DNA from: a bacterium | GTDB lineage: Bacteria; SZUA-182; DTGQ01 | DNA: 64,000 nt | Assembly: GCA_040752695.1 (NCBI GenBank) | Contig: JBFMGO010000003.1 | Span: 1-64,000 of the forward strand | Reading direction: 5' to 3' | The notes under the pieces: model-generated | Told to the model about the DNA's origin: nothing | What the model saw: the letters and a program-made list of their open reading frames with translations, nothing else | Databases searched by the model: none | Translations under genes and position numbers: made by a program | Part shown: one piece after another, positions 27,657-42,079 of the stretch | Layout: every line of letters begins with the position of its first letter | How positions within the stretch are numbered: the stretch's first letter is position 1

Positions 27657-28469
27657 TTAATAATGCGTAAGGCTTCCGTCCCGCTTGGCCTTGTTCACGG
27701 CAAAGCGAAAGCTGAAGATACCAAGGGGCAGCATGACCAGCGTGAATATTCCAAGCCCCGCGATATGCGGGCCGAGCGCGTTCAGGGAATAACCTTTCAG
27801 AAGAGCAAACCGCATCCCCTCAAGTGAATAGGTAAGAGGGATAAGGTAAGAGAATCTTCTCAGCCACGGCGGCAGGACCGTAATCGGGTAATACACTCCA
27901 CCCAGAAACCATGACAGGCCAGAAAACAGCCCGGCCAGGGGATCCCCCTTTTTAAACACCATGATGAAGCTGGCCGAGGCAATACCGATACTGCTGAAGG
28001 TGGTGATGGTCAGGAACAAAATGAGGGCAGCACCTGTAAAATTCGCCTGGCTGATATTGACGTCAAACAGCAGCGTCCCGATCAGAAGATAGACAATCAC
28101 CCTGAAAGATGTCCAGATGAAGCTGTAGAGCGAGGAGGATATAATAATAGTAGGGATCTCGGTCTGGGTAACCAGAATGGCCTCCAGGGTGCCTGTCATC
28201 TGGGCATTTCTGATGCTTGAGGAGAAACTGCGCAAAGAAACCTCGAGATAATTGGTGAAGGCCACTCCAATCAGAACGAATGAGAAATAGTCCCCTCCAT
28301 AGGGTTTCAGGTAAGGAACGGCCGCCGCTCCGAAGAGCTTGGACAAAAAATAAAAAATAAGGACCGAGATAAAGATGCCGAAAAATTGGAGAAAAAAGGC
28401 AAACTTATAACTTGTCTCCTCAATAAAATCTCTCTGAATAAAGGCAAAAGCCTTTCTCAGAAACGTCAT
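27657..28469 (-). CDS. ABC-2 type transporter permease
   Basis: About 6 TM, GTLEAILVT, GVYYP...LPPWL...PLTY. Confidence 0.9.
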   Translation of the reverse strand: MTFLRKAFAFIQRDFIEETSYKFAFFLQFFGIFISVLIFYFLSKLFGAAAVPYLKPYGGDYFSFVLIGVAFTNYLEVSLRSFSSSIRNAQMTGTLEAILVTQTEIPTIIISSSLYSFIWTSFRVIVYLLIGTLLFDVNISQANFTGAALILFLTITTFSSIGIASASFIMVFKKGDPLAGLFSGLSWFLGGVYYPITVLPPWLRRFSYLIPLTYSLEGMRFALLKGYSLNALGPHIAGLGIFTLVMLPLGIFSFRFAVNKAKRDGSLTHY

Positions 28470-28472
28470 TTT

Positions 28473-28580
28473 AAGTCTCCGGTCATTGTTAAGACTCCAG
28501 TCATTGTTGATTCTCCGGCCATTTTAAAACTCCAGTCGTTTTGAGTCTCCAGTCGCCTTGAGTCTCCAGTCACTTTAAAA
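28473..28580. repeat. 18-bp-period intergenic tandem repeat (about 6 copies)
   Basis: aagtctccggtcattgtt / aagactccagtcattgtt / gattctccggccatttta / ...gagtctccagtc... Confidence 0.8.
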
Positions 28581-29609
28581 CTCATTTTCTTTTTGCTCAC
28601 TCTTTGTATAGGTTGAGTAGATTTCATAAAGGGGGATCTCTTTTTTAACGCAGCTTTGTATCTTTCCTCCCCTATTCACCATACAGGCAATAACGTCCGA
28701 AATCTCCGGTTTCTTTTTCCCATCCACCGAAGTAAGGCCGATTTCCACCTCAACGTCCTGCCCTGTTTCGGCGATAATTTGAATGCTTATCTGTCCGTCC
28801 ATCTGCTGGCCTATTTTTTCGATAAAGCCGCTGGGGAGTGTTTTCAGGCAAATCAGATACCGGTCCAGTCTCTCAAAAACGGGCTGCATCTGCGCTGGAG
28901 CTCCACTGGCTTTGATTTTTCCGCTGTGGATAATCGCAATTCTATGGCCGATCTCTTCCACCTCACGCAGGTTATGAGTAGCTAAAAATACGGTTTTGCC
29001 TTGCTGATCAACAACCTTCTCTCTGATAAAGTGTCTCAGGGAATCGGCGCTGGCAGGATCAAGGGAGCGGGTTGGCTCATCCATGAACAGGATGTCGGGA
29101 TCAGTCAAGAGTGCGCGGGCAATAGCCATTCTTTGCTTCATACCCAGGGAAAAATCCTTGAACGGCGTATGGGTCTTCTTCTCAAGATCAACCAGGTTCA
29201 GCACGTTTTTGATCCGCTGTTCCAATTCCGGAGCAGGAATATTATTCAAGATTCCGAAAAATTTAAGATTCTGGCAGGCAGTAAGCCGCCAGTAAAAACT
29301 TCTCTCGTCACTGATGGCATAGCCGATGGCCCGCCTTACTTCACCTGGGCTCGTGACGACATCGAGCCCGTTGACCACAGCTTTCCCTTCGGTCGGCAGC
29401 ATCAGGGTGCAGAGAATCTTGATGAGGGTTGTTTTTCCCGCCCCATTTGGCCCCAAAAGGCAGAATACCTCCCCTTTGTGAACCTTGAGGGAAACATCCT
29501 GAAGGGCAGTAATTTCTTTGCGTAATAACGGAAAAGAGAGTAAATCCCGAAATTGTTTAATCCGAGTAAATTTTTTTGTTATCCGGGAGGTTTCTATGGC
29601 GATGGACAT
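28575..29609 (-). CDS. ABC transporter ATP-binding protein
   Basis: GPNGAGKT, FSLGMKQR, LFMDEPT, ATH switch. Confidence 0.95.
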   Translation of the reverse strand: MSIAIETSRITKKFTRIKQFRDLLSFPLLRKEITALQDVSLKVHKGEVFCLLGPNGAGKTTLIKILCTLMLPTEGKAVVNGLDVVTSPGEVRRAIGYAISDERSFYWRLTACQNLKFFGILNNIPAPELEQRIKNVLNLVDLEKKTHTPFKDFSLGMKQRMAIARALLTDPDILFMDEPTRSLDPASADSLRHFIREKVVDQQGKTVFLATHNLREVEEIGHRIAIIHSGKIKASGAPAQMQPVFERLDRYLICLKTLPSGFIEKIGQQMDGQISIQIIAETGQDVEVEIGLTSVDGKKKPEISDVIACMVNRGGKIQSCVKKEIPLYEIYSTYTKSEQKENEF

Positions 29610-29620
29610 GGTCTTTTTTC

Positions 29621-30442
29621 CTAAAAGGCAGACAGAATAGACATAAAGCAAACCAGGCCGAATCCGCTGATAAAACCCCACAGGATCTGCGGATGGGAAT
29701 TGGTGGCATACGCTTCGGGGATGAGTTCGTCAATGATTACAAAGACTATGGCTCCAGCGGCCAGGGCCAGCGCGAGCGCATAATGAACCTCACCGAAGTA
29801 TCGGCAGCCATAAAAACCGGCGACCGATCCGGCCAGAACTGCCAGTCCGGGAATACTGACCCTGGCTAAAAGGCTTTGCATATTCAGTTTCTTCTCCTGG
29901 TCAAACTTCAGGGAAAGGGTAATTCCCTCGATGATATTGCTGAGAAACATGGATATCCCGACCAATAAACCAAAAGAAGGATTTATCGCATATCCTGCAC
30001 CAATGCACACACCTTCCGGAAAATCGTGGATTAAAAAGCCGAAAAGCAGGATCCATCCGCTTTGGCCGGCCTCTTCGTGCTGATGGGAAATCCTGCCCTG
30101 ATGATGATGCCAGTGAGGGAGGAGATGGTCCACCACCGAAACAAGGATCACGCCTGTCATAAAGGCCGCAGGTATCACCCAGCCTGCTCCCCCCCTGGAG
30201 GGTAATTCGTGCAGCTTTTCAAGAGCCTCTTTGAGTAATTCGAAAAATGCGACTCCAAGCATTAAAGAAGATGCCATACTGAGCATAAACCCGGCATATT
30301 CCCGGCTGAATTTTTCCCTGAGAGCGACAACGGCTCCCCCCAGAGCCATGGCCAGGGTTTGAAACGCCCCTAAAGTGACGACTAAAAGTCTTGCGGACAT
30401 ATTTCTATCCAGGGGGCTTGCCGGAGGGAAGATCCGTCTCAT
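29621..30442 (-). CDS. ZIP (ZupT/GufA-like) divalent metal transporter
   Basis: His-rich loop PHWHHHQ..HQH, HDFPEG, NIIEG, ELIPEA. Confidence 0.9.
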   Translation of the reverse strand: MRRIFPPASPLDRNMSARLLVVTLGAFQTLAMALGGAVVALREKFSREYAGFMLSMASSLMLGVAFFELLKEALEKLHELPSRGGAGWVIPAAFMTGVILVSVVDHLLPHWHHHQGRISHQHEEAGQSGWILLFGFLIHDFPEGVCIGAGYAINPSFGLLVGISMFLSNIIEGITLSLKFDQEKKLNMQSLLARVSIPGLAVLAGSVAGFYGCRYFGEVHYALALALAAGAIVFVIIDELIPEAYATNSHPQILWGFISGFGLVCFMSILSAF

Positions 30443-30687
30443 AAAATTCCCTCCCGACTATCGAGCCTCCCTAATTCCTTTCCCTTCTCTTTAGTGTTTG
30501 CACGGCATCTCCCTCCTCACACACCTCTCACTCTCCCCGAGAGGGAGAGAGTGAGAGGATGAGGAGGAATTTTCAATCTGCCTGGGAAAACCGCATACCT
30601 GCCGCAAGCCGCCTACCTGCCGCATAGGTAAATGGAAATTCTCTCTGATGCAGCAGCGAAGTTCTTCGCGGTTTTACGTATGTCGCC

Positions 30688-32631
30688 TTATATTCCCAGC
30701 GCCTTTCGTTTAGCCTCAATATGCTCGCTGATAAGTCTGGCCCCAGCTACGGGGTCCGGTTCCACGGCAAAGCGTGCGCCTACCACCCCGTCGGCCTGCT
30801 GGGCAAGAAGCTGAGTTACGCCCTGGCTCCCAAGAATCGGCGGTGTCACCCCAAGGAGCACAAAGATACCCGAAGCCACAACATAAGCCCCGATGCTGAT
30901 GGCTTTTTCGGACATGTATTCAGGTGCGGCTCCAGCCAGCGGCAGATCGCTGATATCCACGCCAAGGGTATTGGCCGCCTCAGCGGCCACACTCAATATA
31001 CGGCTGATGTCCACGCACGACCCCATATGGAGCACGGGCGGGATGCCAAGCTGCCGGCAGAGGGCCGAAAGCCCCGGCCCTGCCTCCTGGGCTGCCTCAG
31101 GTCGCAGGAGCCCTGCTTTGGCGCAGGCGATGGCAGCACATCCTGTTTCCACTACCAAGATGTCCTTTTTGATGAGCTCTCTGGCCAGGGTCGTGTGGGC
31201 GAAGTCCTGCCTGACCTTGGGGTTATTGCACCCGACAATGGCTGCAATCCCCCTGATGGTGCCGGATTTGATCACATCGAGGAGCGGCCCCAGACTTCCG
31301 CCCAGTGCCTCGGCAATGGCTTCTTTACTGAATCCTGCCATAAACTCCATGCTGTTTTCCGGAATGCACACCTTTTGCTGATAGCGATTGGGGTAGTTTT
31401 CCACAGCCAGCCTGACGATCTGCCGTGCTGCCTGGATCGCCTCTTCCCCTTCCTCATGGAAAGCGACATGTACAGCACCGGGGAACTTGGCTTTGGCTGA
31501 AGTAGAGACGACTTTGGTGTGATAGCATCCGGCTATGGTTGCCAAAGAAGGCATAATGCACTGAACATCCACCACCATGGCTTCGACTGCTCCGGTGATA
31601 ATGGCCAATTCCTGCTGGAGGAAATTTCCTGCTACCGGCAGACCCTTGCGCATCAGGATCTCGTTGCCTGTGCAGCACATGCCGACGCAGTTGATTCCTT
31701 TTGCTCCCTTTTCCGCCGCAAGGGCAATGAGTTCCGGCTCTTCTGCCACCTGGCTTACCATTTCCGAGAGTAGGGGCTCATGGCCGTGCAAAACAATATT
31801 GACCATATCCGCCTTGAGCACCCCAAGGTTACTCTGGCAGGTCTTGATTTTCGGCGTGCCAAACAGGACATCGGAGAGCTCGGTGGCTGCCATGGAGCCT
31901 CCCCATCCGTCAGAGAGCGATGCCCGCAATCCCTGCAGAATGAGGTTGACAGCGTCATTATCCACACCGATGTGCGTCCGGTGCATGATCTCGACAATCT
32001 CACGATCAATCCCACGGGGGGTTATCGCAAGCTTGTTCCACAAGTCACGGCGCTTTTGCGGAACACGATTGACGAACTGTAAACTCCCTTTCCGGGTACC
32101 GAACTCATCCAGGATCGCCTCGGCTATCTGCCTGGCTATCTCTTCTTTACTCTTATCCTGTGCTTCAATGCCAAATTCCGCTGCCAGTGCCAGGAGCTTT
32201 TTCTCATCCTTGACCCCATAGCCGGCAATTTTCCCCTGGCTGGCCAGATGGAGCACTTCGGTCACATCCCTGCCATGGTCTGAATGGGCTGCGGCTCCGG
32301 ATGCTATCATCCGAAGCAGGTTGCGGGCTACAATGATATCCGCAGTAGCTCCGCAGACCCCTTTTTGGGGGCCGTTTTCCAGTGGGTCGATTCTGCACGG
32401 ACCCATCAGACAATTGCGGCAGCAGACGCCTAATTCACCGAAGCCGCACTGGGTCTGCTGGGCTTCGTAGCGGTCCCAGGCCGTCTCTATTCCCTCTTGG
32501 GCAGCCTTGCTCAGGAGGAGCTGCGAGGCAGGATCTGAGGACCGGTCGGCAATCGACTTTTTCTCAATCTCTTTTTGCATACAGGCATCCCATAAGAGAT
32601 GTTTTGGATCTTTGAGGTTACTATTGTCCAT
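30688..32631 (-). CDS. cooS: anaerobic Ni,Fe carbon monoxide dehydrogenase catalytic subunit
   Basis: D/B-cluster CGFGELGVCCRNCLMGPC...GVCGA; AAHSDH; C-cluster HGHEP, CCTGNE, DVQC, GCNN, TGC, GSCVD; SEKA lysine. Confidence 0.97.
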   Translation of the reverse strand: MDNSNLKDPKHLLWDACMQKEIEKKSIADRSSDPASQLLLSKAAQEGIETAWDRYEAQQTQCGFGELGVCCRNCLMGPCRIDPLENGPQKGVCGATADIIVARNLLRMIASGAAAHSDHGRDVTEVLHLASQGKIAGYGVKDEKKLLALAAEFGIEAQDKSKEEIARQIAEAILDEFGTRKGSLQFVNRVPQKRRDLWNKLAITPRGIDREIVEIMHRTHIGVDNDAVNLILQGLRASLSDGWGGSMAATELSDVLFGTPKIKTCQSNLGVLKADMVNIVLHGHEPLLSEMVSQVAEEPELIALAAEKGAKGINCVGMCCTGNEILMRKGLPVAGNFLQQELAIITGAVEAMVVDVQCIMPSLATIAGCYHTKVVSTSAKAKFPGAVHVAFHEEGEEAIQAARQIVRLAVENYPNRYQQKVCIPENSMEFMAGFSKEAIAEALGGSLGPLLDVIKSGTIRGIAAIVGCNNPKVRQDFAHTTLARELIKKDILVVETGCAAIACAKAGLLRPEAAQEAGPGLSALCRQLGIPPVLHMGSCVDISRILSVAAEAANTLGVDISDLPLAGAAPEYMSEKAISIGAYVVASGIFVLLGVTPPILGSQGVTQLLAQQADGVVGARFAVEPDPVAGARLISEHIEAKRKALGI

Positions 32632-32707
32632 ATTCAGCGGATCTCCTTTTTAGGCAATATACCCTTATGTCATACCATGTTACTATTCAAAACATGACCG
32701 AGCCTGA

Positions 32708-33277
32708 TTACCTTTGTATATTCAGTGCCCTGGCCAGATCCTGGACGCTTTGCTTCCTATGTGCCTGCCTCCACCTTTCGGGGATAACCATAACCAGGGA
32801 GCGGGTAGGACATGCCTGAATGCAGGCTGGCTGTTTGCCAATGATCAGACGGTCGATGCACAGATCACACTTATCCACCACCAGAGCATCAGGGGACACC
32901 TTCTCTTTTATCTGACTGGAAGCCAGACGGTGAACCAGTTCAATTGCGCCGAAGGGACAGACCATCATGCAGGTTTTACACCCGATGCACATCGCCTTGT
33001 GCAACTCTATTCTCCCCTCTGCACTCTGGATGGCACCAAGGGGGCATACGCGGGCACAGGGCGCGTCTTCGCAATGCCGACACTGGACGGGCATGGTGAT
33101 CTCGTCAACAGAAACCAGATAGTTTCTGGCCATAAGAGGAATTTTCCGGACCACGGCGCTTTTCAGGTCAGTCTTTGCGCCTTCGGCAGCACAGGCCAAC
33201 TCGCAATTATGACAGTGCTGGCACTTTTGGGGATCAGCGAAAATAAAAGGATTGCCAAGGTATTTTTGCTCTCTCAT
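32708..33277 (-). CDS. cooF: 4x[4Fe-4S] electron-transfer protein (CooF/HydN family)
   Basis: CQHCHNCELAC, CRHCEDAPCARVCP, CIGCKTCMMVCP, KCDLC...PACIQACP; directly upstream of cooS. Confidence 0.9.
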   Translation of the reverse strand: MREQKYLGNPFIFADPQKCQHCHNCELACAAEGAKTDLKSAVVRKIPLMARNYLVSVDEITMPVQCRHCEDAPCARVCPLGAIQSAEGRIELHKAMCIGCKTCMMVCPFGAIELVHRLASSQIKEKVSPDALVVDKCDLCIDRLIIGKQPACIQACPTRSLVMVIPERWRQAHRKQSVQDLARALNIQR

Positions 33278-33506
33278 CGATTCACCCTCCTTGGGTAGTA
33301 ATTATTTCTCCTCGCTCCATTCTGCATTGACAGCAATTTCATCTCCTCGCTGCATGTATCATTTTAAGGAAAGCTTCGGTTCTTGCGCCTGACTATAGAA
33401 TTCTTGCGCCTGACTGCTCTTTCTCCTGACTATAGAGCCCTTTCGCCAGGCTGCCGCTCCAGGCCAAGGCAGGCTGCCGCTCCACATCAAGCCAGACCTT
33501 CGCAAG

Positions 33507-34589
33507 CTATCGTTCTAAGCAGGCGTAGCAAGGATCAATGCTGGCCACGATTAAAGGAACATCTTCAACGTAGGAATCGGTAAGTACGATTTTCAAGGCA
33601 TCCAGGTTACGGTCCGTAGGAGTCGTGATGTGAATTTGCTCCAGGTGAAGGTGATCCGAAAGAACGATCCGGTAAAAATTTTCTCCCCGTGGCGCTTCCA
33701 CGGATGCAGCGACAGAACCGGCAGGAAGGGGAAATGACGGGTCTATCGACACGGGGCTTTCCGGCAGGGAATGCAAAGAGGTGAGAAGCTGCCGGATCAT
33801 CCTGATGCTCTCGCCTATTTCAAGGACCCGGACCTCACATCTGGCCAGGACATCACCGGTATTCTTTACGGGTATCTGAAAATCCAGATGAGGATAAAAC
33901 GCATACCCGTCATTTTTCCGTATATCCTGGCTGATCCCGCTGGCTCTGGCCACAGGACCCGTAGCCAGGGTGCTTTGGGCATCCTGAGTCGAAAGAATGC
34001 CGATTCCTCTCAGGCGAGAATGGGTGATCAAGCACCGGTCCATTTCCTCACGCGACTGATCGACGGCATCCAGCCTTGACAGCAGGGTCTTTATAAGGTG
34101 CGAATCTTTCAGGTTGATTCTCACTCCTCCAACCTGATTGAAATCATAGTTGACCCGTTTTCCGGTCACCAGGTTCAGCATGGCGGCGGCATTTTCCCTG
34201 GCTTCGAAAAGCGATGACAGGCAAGAGGATAAATCCAGATGATCAGCTATAAATATCAAGGGGAAAAGATGTGATTGGATGCGCTCGATCTCGGCCACCA
34301 GGGTTCTGATGGAGGCAGCCCGTTGCGGAATGCTTATCCTGCCCAGTTTCTCCAGCGCCTGACAAAAACAGGTCGTATGGCTGGCAGTGCATATCCCGCA
34401 GATTCTCTGCAAGAGGACAAGATTTTGCCAAAGGTTCTGCTCCCCGGCCAGTTTCTCGATACCCCTGTGGGAATATCCCAAAGATACCTGAACGCGGCTG
34501 ACACGGCCGCTCTGAATCTCATATTCAATCTTGAGAGGGTTCCCCACTGCCGGGAGATAGATATTAAGGGGCAAGGATGATGCAGACAT
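33507..34589 (-). CDS. group-4-type [NiFe] hydrogenase large subunit (no cleavable C-terminal extension)
   Basis: GYSHRGIEK, L1 RICGIC, EIERIQSH, GPVARASG..D.R, EAPRGE, TPT, L2 DPCYACLER-stop. Confidence 0.9.
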   Translation of the reverse strand: MSASSLPLNIYLPAVGNPLKIEYEIQSGRVSRVQVSLGYSHRGIEKLAGEQNLWQNLVLLQRICGICTASHTTCFCQALEKLGRISIPQRAASIRTLVAEIERIQSHLFPLIFIADHLDLSSCLSSLFEARENAAAMLNLVTGKRVNYDFNQVGGVRINLKDSHLIKTLLSRLDAVDQSREEMDRCLITHSRLRGIGILSTQDAQSTLATGPVARASGISQDIRKNDGYAFYPHLDFQIPVKNTGDVLARCEVRVLEIGESIRMIRQLLTSLHSLPESPVSIDPSFPLPAGSVAASVEAPRGENFYRIVLSDHLHLEQIHITTPTDRNLDALKIVLTDSYVEDVPLIVASIDPCYACLER

Positions 34590-35705
34590 CTAAACCCCTC
34601 CTTTTTTTACTTGCCTTACCTGACCGTCGCGGACGCTGTGGAGGTAATGCATGGTTTCAGCCGATATCTTAAGATGCCGGGCAAAGGCAAACCGTCTGCA
34701 GGTCGGGCACATTTCAGTCCATGCTGCCCGGTCACTCTGACTGATGTGATCAGGGAGCGAGCCGTAAAGCTGTCTGACGAAAGCCTCAGGCATGGCAACC
34801 ATCCATTTCCGGCAGCCCAGACAGCGGATGAGGGGAAGCGATCCTCTGACCATAAACTCATCACGTTGCGACTGCACGAGAGGAGAACGAATACCAGGGA
34901 GGCGAATACAGCCTGTCGGACAAAGCTGCTCGCACAGGGAGCAAAACAGGCATGCCCCCTGATTGAACTCCATCAGGCAGGAGGGACCATGGGATAATCC
35001 TGCCGGAGCCTCAGACGCCACCGGAGCCTCAGACGCCGCTGAAGCATCAGACCCCGCCGGCATCTCAACACCTTTGTTTTTCCCTTTCCCGGAGCCGCTA
35101 TTTTCCTCCTCCGGCCCAATCAACCTGATAGCCTTACCGGGGCAGATCTTCTGGCACAGACCGCAGCCCAGACACAGTTCAGGGCGAAATTCCACTCTGG
35201 CGATGCTCTCTTCCGGCTTCGCGCCGCTGACCAGATACTGTATCCCCTGCCAGATATCTTCCGGGCCCGGCGGGCATCCAGCCACATAAAGATCAGGCGC
35301 ATACTCCTGGATCAGGCTCTGCCCAAAAGGATCGTAAGCAGGAAAGATGTGAGTACAGGGATTGTGCATGCTGGAATCGTGCATGCCGGAATTGTATTGA
35401 TACACTCCGCCGCTTATGGCGCAGGCACCAACTGCAAGCCGCCGCACGGCAGTGCCGAAACGGGGAAGAAATTCCTTCAGTATCCGGCCGGATTCCCGAT
35501 TCAAGGAGCCGAAAAGCAGAATAAGGTTGGCGGATTCAGGCTGACTGACAAATTCACATCTGAGTCCGTCGGATTGATTGGAATGCGTAAAAAGGGACAG
35601 GATTTCAAGTTCACAGCCGCCACAGCTTCCCGCATTGAAAACAAAGACAGAATACGGGCCCAAAGCCTTTGCATTGAACAGAGGCTCTTTCTCTTCAGTA
35701 TTCAT
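34590..35705 (-). CDS. hydrogenase small subunit (NuoB/EchC-like) fused to a 2x[4Fe-4S] ferredoxin with extra CxxC...CxxC
   Basis: SCGGCELE, VGACAISGG, GCPP; CLGCGLCQKICP, CLFCSLCEQLCP; CLGC...CPTC. Confidence 0.9.
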   Translation of the reverse strand: MNTEEKEPLFNAKALGPYSVFVFNAGSCGGCELEILSLFTHSNQSDGLRCEFVSQPESANLILLFGSLNRESGRILKEFLPRFGTAVRRLAVGACAISGGVYQYNSGMHDSSMHNPCTHIFPAYDPFGQSLIQEYAPDLYVAGCPPGPEDIWQGIQYLVSGAKPEESIARVEFRPELCLGCGLCQKICPGKAIRLIGPEEENSGSGKGKNKGVEMPAGSDASAASEAPVASEAPAGLSHGPSCLMEFNQGACLFCSLCEQLCPTGCIRLPGIRSPLVQSQRDEFMVRGSLPLIRCLGCRKWMVAMPEAFVRQLYGSLPDHISQSDRAAWTEMCPTCRRFAFARHLKISAETMHYLHSVRDGQVRQVKKGGV

Positions 35706-35840
35706 TTAAAAGACCCTCGACGTTAGTGAGTATGGGTATTTGGATTATGCGGGTTGACTATTCTCTACCTGCGAGGAAAGAGACATCCCAGCTTGCAGAA
35801 ACTTAACTTTTCAGCAATATCTATTGAATATTTTTAGATA

Positions 35841-35869
35841 AAGATACCAGGAGGACCGGAGCTTGTCAA
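35841..35869 (-). promoter_or_regulatory. putative sigma-70 promoter for the hydrogenase-CODH cluster
   Basis: Minus strand TTGACA-17 bp-TATCTT with TG extended -10. Confidence 0.6.
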
Positions 35870-36044: not shown

Positions 36045-39000
36045 TCATTCATCCCTTGGGTCCTTAAGTCGCCCGAGGAAGAGAATGGCACCTGATTTGG
36101 TATCCCTGATAACGAATATGAAGGGCCGGCTGAGAGCGACCTCTTTGGGTTGTTCCGAGTGATTTTCAAAAAAGGTACCAGGGGAGTATGAAGGTGGAGA
36201 GTGAGTGATTAATATACTAATGACACCGGTTCCAAACTCCGGAATGGGGATCTCTTCTTTCCCCTCCAGAGTAACGGCTGTCGCTCCTGCGCATCTTACT
36301 CCGGCTTCCTTTACTGAAATATGTGCCATAAAGGTACTGCCGTTAAGGTAGAGATCATCGAGCTCATTGATAGCGGAAAAATCCGCCATGCCTTCTGCTC
36401 TTGCATCGTGTATGCCTAAAGAGGAAAGCAGGCTTTCAATGCCTTGACCGCAGGTGAAGGAAAAAAGCGGCAGATGTAATGCAATTCTCCGGTAATCAAG
36501 CTGGTCTATAATGCGGTTAATCTTTTCGGAGTTCAGGGAGGCTTCAAATTCCTGATAATGATTTGATTCAGGAATCAAAAGCAGCATTGCCAGGTTACTG
36601 TCTTTAAAGGCCAGTTCAATCGCCTGATACTGCTCATCCTCAGTAAAGGGAAAGGATGCTTCTTGCGTCATCATCGGTACGGTGATCATTGTATGAGAAT
36701 ATGAGTCAAGCTCGAAGGTGCCGTCGGAGGTTGCGTTCGGGTCAAAGGGTTGTGCCCATGTACCGGTTAAATCAGCAGCAGCGGCGCAGGCCCATCTGAC
36801 CCGGTCTGTAACGGGATTGACGTGCAGGCTGAAGAGCCCGCCGGTATGATCCATTATCCACTTTTCAATATTATCCGCTGAATCCATCATGGCGGACTTG
36901 AAGTCCAGGGACCGGATCGCCTGGCAGTAGTTTTCCGCCAGAAGATTATAAAAGTCAATATGCATGAAATATCCCGTCTGTCCCCAGGCGGCTGTTTCCG
37001 TTTGCAGCACAGATAATTCCCGGTTTTTAAGGTTAAGATCAAGGACATTGAAGACCGTGTGGAGATTCTCCGTTTGATCCTCAAAATGCAGGGCCACCTG
37101 AATCTGACGGGCGGTTTCGCCGGCTGCACCGGCACAGGTCATGGCCATTGCCCTTGAGAAGGTATAGGGGGAGAAGACAAGATTGCCTCTTCCACTCTCA
37201 AACTCCTTGTAAAACCTGAAGGCAAAGGTATTATTACTGGCCGTGAGAGCAGCCGTTTCATCCTTCCCCACATCGGGGAAAGTCCTGTCAGTGACCATAA
37301 AGGGATGTGAGGTTTTATCCTCATTGAGAAGTAGCCAGGTAGGAGAATGAATAAAGGTGAGTTCATAAAGACTGGTTAAAGAACCAGTTAAAGGGTCAAC
37401 AGCACCCAAAGCTATGGGTCCTGTATCGCGGCCGTATATTTCAAAAGCCGTGATTGAACAGCCGCCGGTATCCGTCCCTGCAGGCAGGGTAATTCCCAAT
37501 GCAGCATCATTTCCCTGAAAATCCAGTTCAGTAAATGGTGTACCCTCATCGAGATGCCAGACAATGACCGCCTTTTCATAATTCCCCTGAAGGACGTAAA
37601 CATTCTGGATATCGATCAAGAGCTTATTTCCGGTTTCCTCACGGTAGGCCGCGCCCCCGTTATTCACCCGATCATCCGAGCCCTGATCAATGATCATGCC
37701 GTCATAGAGCGTACCCAGGGTCCACCCTGAAGCAGGACAGGTGTGGGCGCTGTCTTTTGCCGGATACTCACCACTAACGTCATCAAAACCTGAAATATCA
37801 TCAAAACCTGAAACGTCATCAAAACCTGAAAAGGTAACTTCTTCTTCATTATGACACACGATCATACTCTCGGTATTCCAAAAGCCGGCTACAATAACCC
37901 CTGATACTTCACCGGACACACCAGGTACATCAGACAGACCAGGCACTGCTGCCTCTCCTGTAATAGCGCTCGTGTACGTGGTGCTTCCGCCATAAGTCCT
38001 CTGGAAGGTTTTCACTCCGTACTTCTCCGGGTCGGACGGAAAGTAATCTGGAAAGGAAATCAGTTCTGACTGATGTATCCAGGTAGAATAATGCAAAGGA
38101 TTATCCTCATCAGATCTCCCATCATGATCCGATTGCTCATTATGATCCGCTTGATCATCAAGGATCCACTTCCACTCAATGGTCAATCTGTTACGGTCAA
38201 TGAGATAAAAACCGGCCACATTATCGCCCGGATCTTCATTCCCCTGGTCTTCCCCTGACCCGAGCACTCCTTCACCACAGACCATTGTCAACCGGTGCGG
38301 CATCACATCTTTGTCAGTAGTATACCTGCCGGTGAGGTTAACGAGGGACCCCTCTTTTTCACTCCTGAAATGAAAAGCGCCAGCAGGCTCCAGGGTCAGG
38401 AAGGCTTTACTCACCTGGCGGGAATCTTCCAGAATCCCTACCCATGTCCCGGTTATGGCTGAATCAATGGACTCCTGAGCAATTTTATCGAGTGTTTTCC
38501 GTAAATGGTTTTGGGCACGGTCACGGGAAACAAGCGTAAGGTCGCTGATACTGCTAATGGTAGCCATGTGCCCTATCACATTTTCAAAAGTCTGCTCCAG
38601 AACATCGAATTGAAGAGGAATTCCACCGATGTCTGCTGCTCTTTCTTCCGGAATCTCGATTCCGTTATTCGGGTCAGCATCGGCGTCCAGGGTAAGAAGA
38701 AAACGGCAGATGTTGATTATTCCGGGGTGAGATACCGAGCCATTGGGAACTAAGTCTATGGGAGTAATAATGGGTTTTCCTGTGGCTTCACCGAAAATGA
38801 TCTTGCCGAGAGAAAACTTTACTGTCTTTCCTTCTTCGTATTGAAAGGTTCCGTTGCGATCGGTTATACCGGTATGATCTCCTGAAGAGTAGTGCAGTCC
38901 CAAGACAGCGCTATCTAAAAATCGCCCTTCCCGTACGACGGCAGGTTCCGATGCTCCCTTTCCCTCTGTTCCCTTTTCCTCACGGGAACAGGCCATAATA

Positions 39001-39056
39001 ATGGAAAGAAGGATAACGATGAGTACTATATATGCAAAAGTATATTTTTTCTTCAT
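36045..39056 (-). CDS. multidomain lipoprotein with C-terminal serpin domain
   Basis: Lipobox-like IMA-C; N-domain FLDSAV.GL.Y...G.T...G.F.Y; serpin NNTFAFRFY, NLVFSPY, W..PFDP..T, VPMM, LPLF, ADFS, RPFIFVIRD..SG.ILFLGR. Confidence 0.88.
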   Translation of the reverse strand: MKKKYTFAYIVLIVILLSIIMACSREEKGTEGKGASEPAVVREGRFLDSAVLGLHYSSGDHTGITDRNGTFQYEEGKTVKFSLGKIIFGEATGKPIITPIDLVPNGSVSHPGIINICRFLLTLDADADPNNGIEIPEERAADIGGIPLQFDVLEQTFENVIGHMATISSISDLTLVSRDRAQNHLRKTLDKIAQESIDSAITGTWVGILEDSRQVSKAFLTLEPAGAFHFRSEKEGSLVNLTGRYTTDKDVMPHRLTMVCGEGVLGSGEDQGNEDPGDNVAGFYLIDRNRLTIEWKWILDDQADHNEQSDHDGRSDEDNPLHYSTWIHQSELISFPDYFPSDPEKYGVKTFQRTYGGSTTYTSAITGEAAVPGLSDVPGVSGEVSGVIVAGFWNTESMIVCHNEEEVTFSGFDDVSGFDDISGFDDVSGEYPAKDSAHTCPASGWTLGTLYDGMIIDQGSDDRVNNGGAAYREETGNKLLIDIQNVYVLQGNYEKAVIVWHLDEGTPFTELDFQGNDAALGITLPAGTDTGGCSITAFEIYGRDTGPIALGAVDPLTGSLTSLYELTFIHSPTWLLLNEDKTSHPFMVTDRTFPDVGKDETAALTASNNTFAFRFYKEFESGRGNLVFSPYTFSRAMAMTCAGAAGETARQIQVALHFEDQTENLHTVFNVLDLNLKNRELSVLQTETAAWGQTGYFMHIDFYNLLAENYCQAIRSLDFKSAMMDSADNIEKWIMDHTGGLFSLHVNPVTDRVRWACAAAADLTGTWAQPFDPNATSDGTFELDSYSHTMITVPMMTQEASFPFTEDEQYQAIELAFKDSNLAMLLLIPESNHYQEFEASLNSEKINRIIDQLDYRRIALHLPLFSFTCGQGIESLLSSLGIHDARAEGMADFSAINELDDLYLNGSTFMAHISVKEAGVRCAGATAVTLEGKEEIPIPEFGTGVISILITHSPPSYSPGTFFENHSEQPKEVALSRPFIFVIRDTKSGAILFLGRLKDPRDE

Positions 39057-39542
39057 GTCCTGCAACACCTCAATGCTCCTCATTTGTTAAAGCATTCATG
39101 ATAAGGCAGAAATAGAAAAGGAAAACTCTTTGATTGATGGAATCATATAAGCCGCTTTCATGCATGTGAGATAACAGACTTTTTATCATTCCATCTTTAT
39201 TGAAAAATGCAAAATTATATTATTTATATTATATATGTTATAATATTATATCGTGTTAAGATGAATTTGGCAAATATTTTTTATGACATCACTGCCTGTA
39301 TCAGGCTATCGAACCAGATCCAGCGGTTGCTCTCTGATTGCCGAGGTATTCCCGAATCGAGGAAATGCTTAAATGGAGGCGCGGCGGATGAGGGCGCCGC
39401 GCCAGAGCGGCAAGGCCGAAGGCCGGGCTCATCGGGGGGGGAATCTCCTCTTTTCCCCTTGTTACAAAAGATGGGGATAAAAACCTGTGCCCCCCGCGAG
39501 TTCCCCTTCTCCCGGCCTTTGATACCGAAAAAGCACTGCTGT

Positions 39543-41100: not shown

Positions 41101-41532
41101 TCAAGGAAGACATGACGAAATAAATACTTCAACGCCAGCTTTTTGAGCTGCACTCAAAAGCTGTCTGTTTAGGCTTATCAGTCTTGCTTCTTTTCTCATT
41201 GCAAGTTCTAAATAGGTTGTATCATAAGCGGTCAATTGGTAAGTAGATGCCAATTCGTAGATACGAGAAGAAAACTTGACTCCATGGGAATGATCGGTGT
41301 TCAGGTTAAACTGGCCAAACAACAGAATGATCTTGGGAATCTCCAGACGGTTTAACCGACCCTGCCTTTCGGCTACGAGCAGCACATTGGTCATCTCATG
41401 CCACCATAAGGCAGGAACCCAGAGCGAATAGTTCCCGGGGAGGCTCCCCAAAAATGACTTCACCTTCACAGAGGATTCATCAGGGAGGAATAAAGCAGAT
41501 GCGGCGTAACAGTCCATCACCCAGTCCATCAA
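41101..41532 (-). CDS. vapC: type II toxin, PIN domain (VapC family)
   Basis: VMDC, VPALWWHEMTN, LTAYD..YLELA; overlaps the antitoxin stop. Confidence 0.9.
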   Translation of the reverse strand: MMDWVMDCYAASALFLPDESSVKVKSFLGSLPGNYSLWVPALWWHEMTNVLLVAERQGRLNRLEIPKIILLFGQFNLNTDHSHGVKFSSRIYELASTYQLTAYDTTYLELAMRKEARLISLNRQLLSAAQKAGVEVFISSCLP

Positions 41533-41783
41533 TGCTCCCTGCCTTCCTGGATGTATGAGCTGATATCGACTTCCCCCTTGATCTTTTCTCTAATAGAATC
41601 AAATTCCCTGAGGAGTTCATCTTTACTCATCTTTTCCTCGTTGTATGGCAATGGCACGAGACAGGCAATGGGTTTTCCTCTCTGGGTAATAGTAAAGGAT
41701 TGCCCCTCCTGAACCTCCTGCAGTAAACGAAACAGGTGGGTCTTGGCATCAAAGGCACTGACTGTGGCAGGTAAATCTTTCAT
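41529..41783 (-). CDS. type II antitoxin, Phd/YefM family
   Basis: VSAFDAKTHL..LL..V..G.SFTIT.RGKPIA.LVP; start could be 41783, 41792 or 41798. Confidence 0.9.
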   Translation of the reverse strand: MKDLPATVSAFDAKTHLFRLLQEVQEGQSFTITQRGKPIACLVPLPYNEEKMSKDELLREFDSIREKIKGEVDISSYIQEGREH

Positions 41784-42079
41784 TGGCTTCATATTCATTA
41801 GTTTAATAAACTGATCAGTAAAAATCAAGAAATACTTGAGTTCTTATAGCACAAGCCTTTTTTCGGGCATGGGTAAGCGGTTATTCTCACTATTCAGCAC
41901 TTGTTTTCGTAATTATAATTAACTGTATATCGTCTATTTGATAAATTTAAAATAAATTTATTGTGCAATTAAAAAGCAACAGATGTGATCGAACATCGCA
42001 TTTCATCAAATTGCACCGTATTCTTTCAGCTCTTTTCAGCAAATTTTCAGCAAATTTTCGGGGGGGAGAGGAGGTGAAA

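Follow-up and report, generated by a model that had tools for sequence, protein, structure and literature searches.

In the literature, group-4 [NiFe] hydrogenases figure as relatives of complex I that sit in the membrane and translocate ions (PMC9474812, PMC8165549, 10.1101/2025.11.06.687094), and a 2025 preprint defines the systems that join a nickel carbon monoxide dehydrogenase (Ni-CODH) to an energy-converting hydrogenase (ECH) by their transmembrane subunits. Ech, in group 4e, is a proton-translocating enzyme of the membrane with six subunits (PMC9356269), and the Drh group-4 hydrogenase has been called 'putative membrane-associated' (PMC6046458). Here we describe a four-gene block on the minus strand of a 64,000-nucleotide (nt) stretch of bacterial DNA (the window; positions 1-64000 of contig C3 in an assembly of 6.05 Mb, 239 contigs and 96.57% completeness), in which the genes of a group-4 [NiFe] hydrogenase precede those of a ferredoxin, CooF, and a Ni-CODH, CooS, with no membrane-arm gene beside them. 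On balance, gene content and alignments favor reading the block as a soluble, non-pumping CO:proton oxidoreductase derived from an Ech- or Coo-like ancestor, which would probably turn CO into H2 inside the cell without ion pumping. As our main new finding, the family has lost the signature of the β1-β2 loop of the large subunit, including its proton-donating glutamate, and an interface loop of the small subunit is altered too.

Coo (group 4c; CooMKLXUH plus CooFS in Rhodospirillum rubrum, CODH-I/ECH in Carboxydothermus) resembles the block in pairing CooS and CooF with a group-4 large subunit that has about 360 amino acids (a.a.) and lacks a C-terminal extension, in having a one-cluster small subunit together with a 2x[4Fe-4S] subunit, and in placing the hydrogenase genes upstream of cooF-cooS. 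The block differs from Coo, however, in having no CooM (antiporter-like), CooK (NuoH-like) or CooU (NuoC-like), in the fusion of its small subunit to a ferredoxin and in the lost loop signature and glutamate. In R. rubrum, the order of the hydrogenase genes is cooL-cooX-cooU-cooH. In that species, these genes lie upstream of cooF-cooS across a gap of more than 400 bp (PMC13056359).

Formate hydrogenlyase-1 of Escherichia coli (FHL; Hyc, group 4a; PDB 7Z0S), a soluble subcomplex of which, without HycC and HycD, elutes on size-exclusion chromatography (PMC9474812), runs along the same path from an input enzyme through a HycB-type ferredoxin to HycF, HycG and HycE, and shares the CxxC-x34-CPxC metal site of HycF and the fold of the large subunit. 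In the block, CODH replaces FdhF, HycC and HycD are missing, the large subunit (28% identical) lacks the NuoC-like N-terminal domain, and a link to the small subunit replaces the N-terminal amphipathic helix of HycF. The hydrogen-dependent CO2 reductase (HDCR) of acetogens is a soluble complex in which polyferredoxins connect a C1 oxidoreductase with a hydrogenase. The analogy to it drawn in the original prediction holds for function but not for descent, since HDCR uses an [FeFe] hydrogenase and a formate dehydrogenase, and the catalytic subunits are not homologous. Searches of open-access PMC and bioRxiv yielded no soluble or arm-less CODH-linked group-4 hydrogenase, and the passages used from two surveys of CODH gene context (PMC6344411, PMC13056359) contained no CODH-linked group-4 hydrogenase without membrane subunits. 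The hydrogenase described below could be the first natural group-4 [NiFe] enzyme to work free in the cytoplasm, as a two-protein form without NuoC, NuoH and antiporter subunits whose loops and proton delivery are remodeled and which would make, with CooF-CooS, a minimal non-pumping water-gas-shift machine; we hold this view tentatively.

The block consists of four consecutive open reading frames (ORFs) on the minus strand, between 30688 and 35705, named by Pfam and NCBIfam models:
34590-35705, minus strand: small subunit-ferredoxin fusion, 371 a.a. in one frame, with PF01058 and two 4Fe-4S motifs
33507-34589, minus strand: group-4 [NiFe] large subunit, 360 a.a., NuoD-like (PF00346, 168 bits; PF00374, 48 bits)
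32708-33277, minus strand: CooF/HycB/HydN-like polyferredoxin, 189 a.a., with 16 cysteines in four [4Fe-4S] motifs (PF13247, 58.6 bits)
30688-32631, minus strand: Ni-CODH catalytic subunit CooS, 647 a.a. (PF03063, 613 bits; TIGR01702, 712.8 bits against a cut-off of 478)

The original prediction had placed the fusion, large subunit, cooF and cooS in this same run, and both the ORFs and the domain matches bear it out. The fusion and large-subunit genes abut, and gaps of 229 nt and 76 nt precede cooF and cooS, respectively.

Judged from the sequences, the catalytic core of the hydrogenase is intact, whereas the soluble-side halves of the coupling interface are changed and its membrane-side halves are missing. 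The large subunit carries CGIC...H near its N-terminus and DPCYAC at its extreme C-terminus, so that both CxxC nickel motifs claimed earlier can be read in the translation, and Cys64, Cys67, Cys354 and Cys357 are invariant. Such a NuoD-like large subunit with two CxxC motifs is one mark of group-4 descent. The four nickel cysteines, His71, Glu45, Arg301, Asp352, Ser106, His107, Glu257 and Arg215 are kept in all alignment rows; the equivalence of the last six to the canopy and proton-path residues of PMC9474812 was read off the HycE alignment. The AlphaFold2 (AF2) model of the large subunit (48-row alignment; predicted local distance difference test, pLDDT, 90.5) superposes on HycE with a template-modeling (TM) score of 0.93 and a root-mean-square deviation of 2.2 A, and the PDB matches lie at similar distances (HycE 160 bits, MbsL 153, MbhL 142). 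No hydrophobic 19-residue segment scoring at least 1.6 was found in the fusion, the large subunit or CooF.

Residues ~20-157 of the fusion form a NuoB/HycG/MbhJ-like small subunit with the proximal-cluster cysteines 28, 31, 95 and 144, followed by a variable linker, a HycF/NuoI-like 2x[4Fe-4S] domain (Cys178/181/184/188 and Cys252/255/258/262) and a C-terminal quartet, Cys295/298/333/336, of the form CxxC-x34-CPxC. Residues 20-156 align to MbhJ (6cfw_J 27-144), and residues 170-194 and 244-338 to HycF (7z0s_F 32-56 and 67-160). The one-cluster NuoB-like small subunit and the NuoI/HycF-like 2x[4Fe-4S] subunit of group 4 are both present, but as a single protein, and 16/16 cysteines are invariant across six family members amid variable low-complexity inserts. 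The CxxC-x34-CPxC quartet of HycF binds a metal ion and contacts HycB (PMC9474812). Because the quartet is retained and HycB is a CooF-type ferredoxin, the fusion seems to keep a docking site for CooF. The N-terminal part of HycF also comprises a loop and an amphipathic helix that lie on the membrane, found in all solved members of the superfamily (PMC9474812); the HycF-like part of the fusion begins at HycF residue 32, linked to the small subunit, and this membrane helix has no counterpart. An AF2 model of the fused small subunit (6-row alignment) had a mean pLDDT of 40.2 and was unusable. Another architecture with a small subunit followed by a ferredoxin motif was seen in proteins P0253-P0275 (223-309 a.a.), which match fusion residues 20-197, comprising the small subunit and the first Fe-S motif, at 60-84 bits.

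Two coupling-interface loops depart from those of other group-4 enzymes. The β1-β2 loop holds the proton-donating glutamate (HycE Glu193, which corresponds to Glu34 of a soluble [NiFe] hydrogenase). It belongs to a set of four loops, located where the soluble arm meets the membrane arm, that are proposed to link turnover with the translocation of ions; the NDUFS7 loop (HycG 69-80) is another of the set (PMC9474812). Four family rows, which represent three lineages because P0006 and L009 are near-identical, were aligned with 117 large subunits from outside the family. Among the latter, Gly9 is present in 115/117, Pro10 in 117/117, His12 in 113/117 and Glu17 in 116/117, whereas the four family rows have N or D at position 9, I, L, P and P at position 10, L at position 12 and N, N, N and S at position 17. 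These four positions fall in the β1-β2 loop: in the AF2 model, strands span residues 4-9 and 19-26, and the sole stretch below a pLDDT of 50 covers residues 9-15. The equivalent of the NDUFS7 loop, located by alignment offset, is fusion residues 49-60, where the usual FG..FVASPRHAD becomes (R/W)C.FVSQPESA(N/D). Of 159 comparison rows with residues there, 118 have Arg57 and 122 have His58, compared with Glu57 and Ser58 in the family; Glu57 also occurs in 14 other small-subunit rows. The conserved form of the β1-β2 loop of energy-converting group-4 enzymes, with its proton-donating glutamate, is accordingly absent from the family.

CooF has the 16 cysteines of a CooF/HycB/HydN-like protein and is assigned at the family level only, since its best NCBIfam model, HydN, scores 119 bits, below the equivalog cut-off of 260. 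CooS is a full-length Ni-CODH that scores above the curated cut-off, and in its alignment to PDB 6t7j_B all D-, B- and C-cluster cysteines and the histidine match, as had been claimed; the ligands are assigned by the numbering of reference enzymes. Its PDB ranking (6t7j 796 bits, 6b6v group 730, 1jqk 565) is a further difference from Coo. A clade-B-type CODH context, prompted by the neighboring ATP-binding cassette (ABC) genes, was rejected: the genes resemble the DrrAB ABC-2 exporter and CooS is closest to the 6t7j/6b6v type, whereas clade B CODH goes with importers of the NitT/TauT type that have a binding protein (PMC6344411). Complex modeling, a check proposed with the original prediction, gave CooF against the fusion and large subunit a score of 0.53 (runs 0.50, 0.68 and 0.53), compared with 0.01 for the best of three controls, with contacts agreeing by at least 62% between runs and a partner pLDDT of at least 74. 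Among 80 solved complexes, 58 reach the mark used, and among 110 mismatched pairs 2 do; but only 7 of those 80, together with both mismatches, reach it with a score of 0.60 or below. The prediction weakly suggests a contact of CooF with the fusion and large subunit, and may reflect likeness alone, since FHL has been solved.

Membrane subunits encoded elsewhere in the genome would speak against a soluble enzyme. Contig C3 has no match to PF00361 (antiporter-like), PF00146 (NuoH/CooK/EchB/HycD) or PF00329 (NuoC), in line with the earlier claim that no such gene lies in or beside the block. Across the whole assembly, PF00146 and PF00329 match once each, both within a nuo operon on contig C83 (L022:4982-13033, minus strand; nuoA, B, C, D, H, I, J, K, M and N) whose NuoD has no nickel cysteines, and the genome-wide search proposed earlier thus returned a single NuoH-like and a single NuoC-like gene. 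The ten PF00361 matches are in this operon, in an Mrp-type cluster on contig C24 (MbhD-, MnhB- and MnhC-like plus antiporter-like genes) and in pairs adjoining ATP synthase genes on contig C31. The genome with locus L009, of the same genus and ~96% complete, likewise has one NuoH and one NuoC, both in its nuo operon. PF00146 does match control genomes with hydrogenase-type anchors only, as well as four comparator hydrogenase loci at 85-123 bits. Three traits of energy-converting group-4 enzymes are therefore missing here: a NuoH-like anchor and an antiporter-like subunit encoded with the enzyme, and a NuoC-like subunit or domain, for which PF00329 misses some divergent cases. The C83 operon itself lacks nuoE, nuoF and nuoG and has no nuoL inside it. 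Adjoining it (L022:13749-17723, plus strand) is a 1324-a.a. multihaem cytochrome with paired CXXCH motifs, an MtrC-like domain and a terminal dockerin.

It is very unlikely that the module is docked to the membrane in the cell by an unrecognized or shared partner, such as the nuo membrane arm, the C24 Mrp cluster or the neighboring ABC-2 permease. The Mrp-type cluster, a nuo operon without nuoEFG and an ABC pair that adjoins the block in two species could each supply such a partner. However, every structurally known member of the superfamily attaches via a NuoH-like subunit (PMC9474812), and the sole NuoH-like gene belongs to a nuo operon with its own NuoB, C, D and I. Docking is also hard to square with the loss of both soluble-side loop signatures, with the HycF membrane helix that has no counterpart, and with the presence of the ABC pair without the block in G004, another genome of the genus.

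The ancestry of the hydrogenase points to a membrane-bound forebear. The nearest named large subunits are of the Ech type (Thermoanaerobacter kivui Ech2E, 39%) or are entered as 'membrane-bound hydrogenase alpha'. A quick 84-row tree placed the family (support 100) on a stem of 1.52 near the base, beside the long branch P0119, and possible long-branch attraction was flagged. A careful 39-row tree that omitted P0119 placed the family (100/100, stem 1.42) inside a group of 18 short Ech-type large subunits (89/97, not starred) that includes T. kivui Ech2E and an Azospirillum plasmid gene. An ancient, pre-fusion soluble hydrogenase was considered but is disfavored, since the basal position vanished and the family moved into the Ech-type group once P0119 was left out. 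Compared with Ech itself, the block has this stem of 1.42 changes per site and no EchA, EchB or EchD. The Azospirillum gene, the nearest annotated large subunit (37%), lies in a locus of nuoL-like, antiporter-like, nuoB, nuoH-like, ferredoxin, nuoC and large-subunit genes. Among the nearest relatives of the small subunit outside the family (~30%), antiporter-like genes occur at 7/7 loci and NuoH-like genes at 4/7 (47 ORFs from 7 of 15 long-flank loci, among 80 loci), and the ferredoxin motif precedes the small subunit, whereas it follows it in the fusion. The metagenome loci L045, L054 and L057 are Hyf-like membrane hydrogenase operons in which the small subunit carries an N-terminally fused ferredoxin motif and the large subunit is fused to NuoC.

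Secondary loss of the membrane arm is favored, not proven, and the lineage most likely arose from an Ech- or Coo-like membrane enzyme by loss and fusion. In the phylogeny that the original prediction had proposed as a check, built here from unnamed and source-named sequences, the place of the large subunit with the short Ech-type group is only moderately supported.

The family of the fusion and its large subunit is very rare. Among 5.8 billion clustered proteins, the large subunit has two close cluster representatives (71% and 64%), and the next of 1882 matches is 40% identical. The fusion has four (47-57%), after which significance drops from E=3e-98 to 6e-12. An exhaustive HMMER search over 1.84 billion representatives gave two at E<=1e-30, with the next at 84 bits. 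The synteny search suggested with the original prediction found one further locus with the block in the species-genome scan, L009, and one in the metagenome scan among the matches listed, L026, which belongs to the same species as L009 (97-98% DNA identity). Both carry the fusion, large subunit, cooF and cooS in the same order as the window; in L009, from a same-genus relative of the source genome, the ABC ATPase and ABC-2 permease follow, as in the window, and the upstream genes are unrelated. A cluster look-up added a third lineage, in which large subunits of 393 and 397 a.a. (P0005/P0243) share contigs of 15,125 and 19,061 bp with fusions of 435-442 a.a. (P0247/P0126).

Among 20 genomes of the phylum, the fusion occurs in 2/20, and all other large-subunit matches are at the NuoD level (<=147 bits). 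No relative thus has a full Coo or Ech operon, and recent deletion from such an operon in the source genome is not supported, since no relative among these genomes has a membrane-bound sibling. G004 (same genus, 97% complete) has neither the fusion nor the large subunit nor the block CooS (best CooS match 56%), but the ABC pair (83% and 68%) is present there in different surroundings; the pair was therefore rejected as an obligate component and is probably a neighbor rather than a part. The G+C content of the block is 54.2% compared with 48.1% for the genome, and 2.3% of 5-kb windows reach the block value, which fits acquisition by transfer; transfer is most likely how the block reached the genus.

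It is extremely unlikely that the hydrogenase genes and cooF-cooS are mere neighbors with separate functions. The gaps between the two pairs (229 nt in the window, 105 nt in L009) and their differing rates of change would suit such a view, but the order and adjacency are kept across species with unrelated upstream flanks, and the hydrogenase pair has no other electron-input partner. The fusion also keeps the HycF site for a HycB/CooF-type ferredoxin, G004 lacks all four genes together, and the complex prediction weakly favors contact.

Between the window and L009, identity is 85% for CooS, 73% for CooF, 64% for the large subunit and 50% for the fusion, compared with 88.6% for NuoH. The ratios of nonsynonymous to synonymous substitution rates (dN/dS) between L009 and L026 are 0.069 for CooS, 0.071 for CooF, 0.145 for the large subunit and 0.589 for the fusion, from few substitutions; between L009 and the window, where dS exceeds 1.2, they are 0.062, 0.105, 0.207 and 0.258. 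By these values, purifying selection acts on all four genes and preserves the hydrogenase pair, though less strictly than cooS. They bear on the idea, which we consider decidedly unlikely, that the hydrogenase pair no longer forms or consumes H2 at a useful rate and is a decaying remnant, a sensor or an enzyme that reduces another substrate in the opened pocket, with CooS-CooF using other acceptors. The lost proton-donating glutamate, His12, Gly9 and Pro10, an evolution faster than that of cooS, and a very narrow distribution with loss in 1/3 genus members all fit such decay. Against it, the four Ni-Fe cysteines, the canopy Arg and Asp and the other proton-path residues are invariant, as are all 16 Fe-S and metal cysteines of the fusion in six sequences; the large-subunit dN/dS is well under 1 (0.145, 0.21), and the frames are intact in three lineages.

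If the four proteins work together, CooS would oxidize CO, and the electrons would pass through the four clusters of CooF, the two HycF-like clusters of the fusion and the proximal cluster of the small subunit to the Ni-Fe site, forming H2. Formate hydrogenlyase, in its soluble arm (FdhF-HycB-HycF-HycG-HycE), and Coo would share this wiring. With the NuoC-like, NuoH-like and antiporter-like subunits gone, no ion would be translocated. Loss of the anchor would also open to the cytoplasm the pocket that it covers, and in an open pocket the proton-relay glutamate of the loop may be dispensable. That the four products associate physically is suggested by homology to FHL and Coo and by the weak complex prediction. 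The minimal cytoplasmic CO-to-H2 complex proposed earlier is supported by the lack of membrane-arm genes in two genomes and of a full operon in relatives.

The likely use of such a complex would be CO removal, or production of H2 for re-oxidation by a periplasmic uptake hydrogenase of the same genome. The source genome has five other [NiFe] large subunits, and hydrogen cycling is suggested by a group-1-like hydrogenase on contig C44, which scores 722 bits against PF00374 and is paired with a small subunit that bears a twin-arginine motif. A genome-wide check for hyp and cooC genes, also foreseen earlier, found HypD and a CooC-like ATPase, the latter in a CODH/acetyl-CoA synthase (ACS) operon on contig C62.

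That operon, with its corrinoid-protein and methyltransferase genes, would give the same soluble complex a reason to run in reverse, reducing CO2 to CO with H2 to feed the acetyl-CoA synthase, and Ni-CODH and group-4 hydrogenases are reversible. We consider this direction unlikely: a separate CooS paralogue, 54% identical to the block CooS, is encoded within the ACS operon, and without an ion gradient the reaction is uphill (CO2/CO ~ -520 mV versus H+/H2 ~ -414 mV) and would need high H2 and very low CO. FHL, for its part, is reversible (PMC9474812). A third CooS homologue of the source genome, on contig C47 (L021:9668-11926, minus strand), has 752 a.a., a Prismane match of 489 bits, an N-terminal extension of ~105 a.a. 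and a C-terminal dockerin type I domain, and G004 has a similar 770-a.a. CooS frame, 44% identical to that of the window; a domain for docking at the cell surface would be unusual in a Ni-CODH.

Several observations weigh against the soluble CO-to-H2 complex that we prefer. The missing loop glutamate, which the original prediction overlooked, weakens any simple version of it, and this residue is retained even in soluble [NiFe] hydrogenases (PMC9474812), so that catalysis could be slow or altered. The hydrogenase genes evolve faster than cooS (64% and 50% versus 85%), and the dN/dS of 0.59 for the fusion in the close pair indicates relaxed constraint. Taken with the loss of the block in 1/3 genus members, the hydrogenase may be slow, altered or being lost. 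In addition, a 229-nt gap parts the hydrogenase genes from cooF, which makes a single transcript an assumption. PF00329 matched 2/6 extended large subunits, and a divergent NuoC-like protein elsewhere could escape it; both block-bearing genomes are draft assemblies (~96%).

The remaining features in and around the block are as follows:
35841-35869, minus strand: sigma-70-like promoter match TTGACA-17-TATCTT with TG ahead of the second hexamer, 10/12 positions, 136 nt upstream of the fusion gene
33278-33506, minus strand: gap of 229 nt between the large-subunit gene and cooF, with no ORF longer than 48 a.a. and no terminator-like site on the same strand
30509-30570, minus strand: long, near-perfect GC-rich hairpin with CT-rich and GA-rich arms just 3' of cooS, a possible transcript end or stabilizer
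29621-30442, minus strand: ZIP/ZupT-like metal transporter between cooS and the ABC genes, not at the matching place in L009
27657-29681, minus strand: DrrA/DrrB-like ABC ATPase (28575-29681) and ABC-2 permease (27657-28469), a neighbor conserved in L009 and L026

The promoter of the original prediction is present as a sequence at 35869-35841, but it is a consensus match only, because such sites are not above shuffle counts: the region holds 10 promoter-like sites compared with 7.9 +/- 2.9 in shuffles, and its terminator-like sites likewise do not exceed them. Comparison of the gap before cooF with L009 and L026 showed no conserved motif beyond the ribosome-binding site, and no hidden ORF longer than 48 a.a. 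was found within the gaps of the block. By eye, positions 33395-33480 (minus strand) contain direct repeats, a 14-nt unit twice and a 20-nt unit twice with changes, which L009 and L026 do not have. A search of the region with Rfam at E<=1 gave chance-level matches only, to microRNA-precursor models, at the hairpin of 30509-30570. The 15 ORFs scanned around the block include no regulator-like Pfam domain, with no search aimed at CooA or RcoM. Farther along the minus strand, positions 36045-39083 of the window encode a 1012-a.a. protein with a C-terminal serpin domain (residues 616-1009, 239 bits) and no Pfam match in the 600 residues ahead of it, and positions 41101-41828 hold a PIN-domain gene and a Phd/YefM-like gene, likely a toxin-antitoxin module.

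A natural group-4 enzyme that lacks the membrane arm and has lost its coupling-loop signatures would be a ready-made evolutionary 'uncoupling experiment', which could tell the features needed for coupling from those needed for catalysis and test the need for the loop glutamate once the pocket is open to water. Known microbial CO handling would be widened to detoxification or hydrogen cycling without a pump, and the four genes would offer a soluble CO-to-H2 module of practical interest, a small soluble catalyst of CO-driven H2 production if the reading is true. Should the enzyme prove inactive, the block would be a rare snapshot of such a complex decaying; if the reading is true, it would show that evolution can uncouple the catalytic head of the complex I superfamily.

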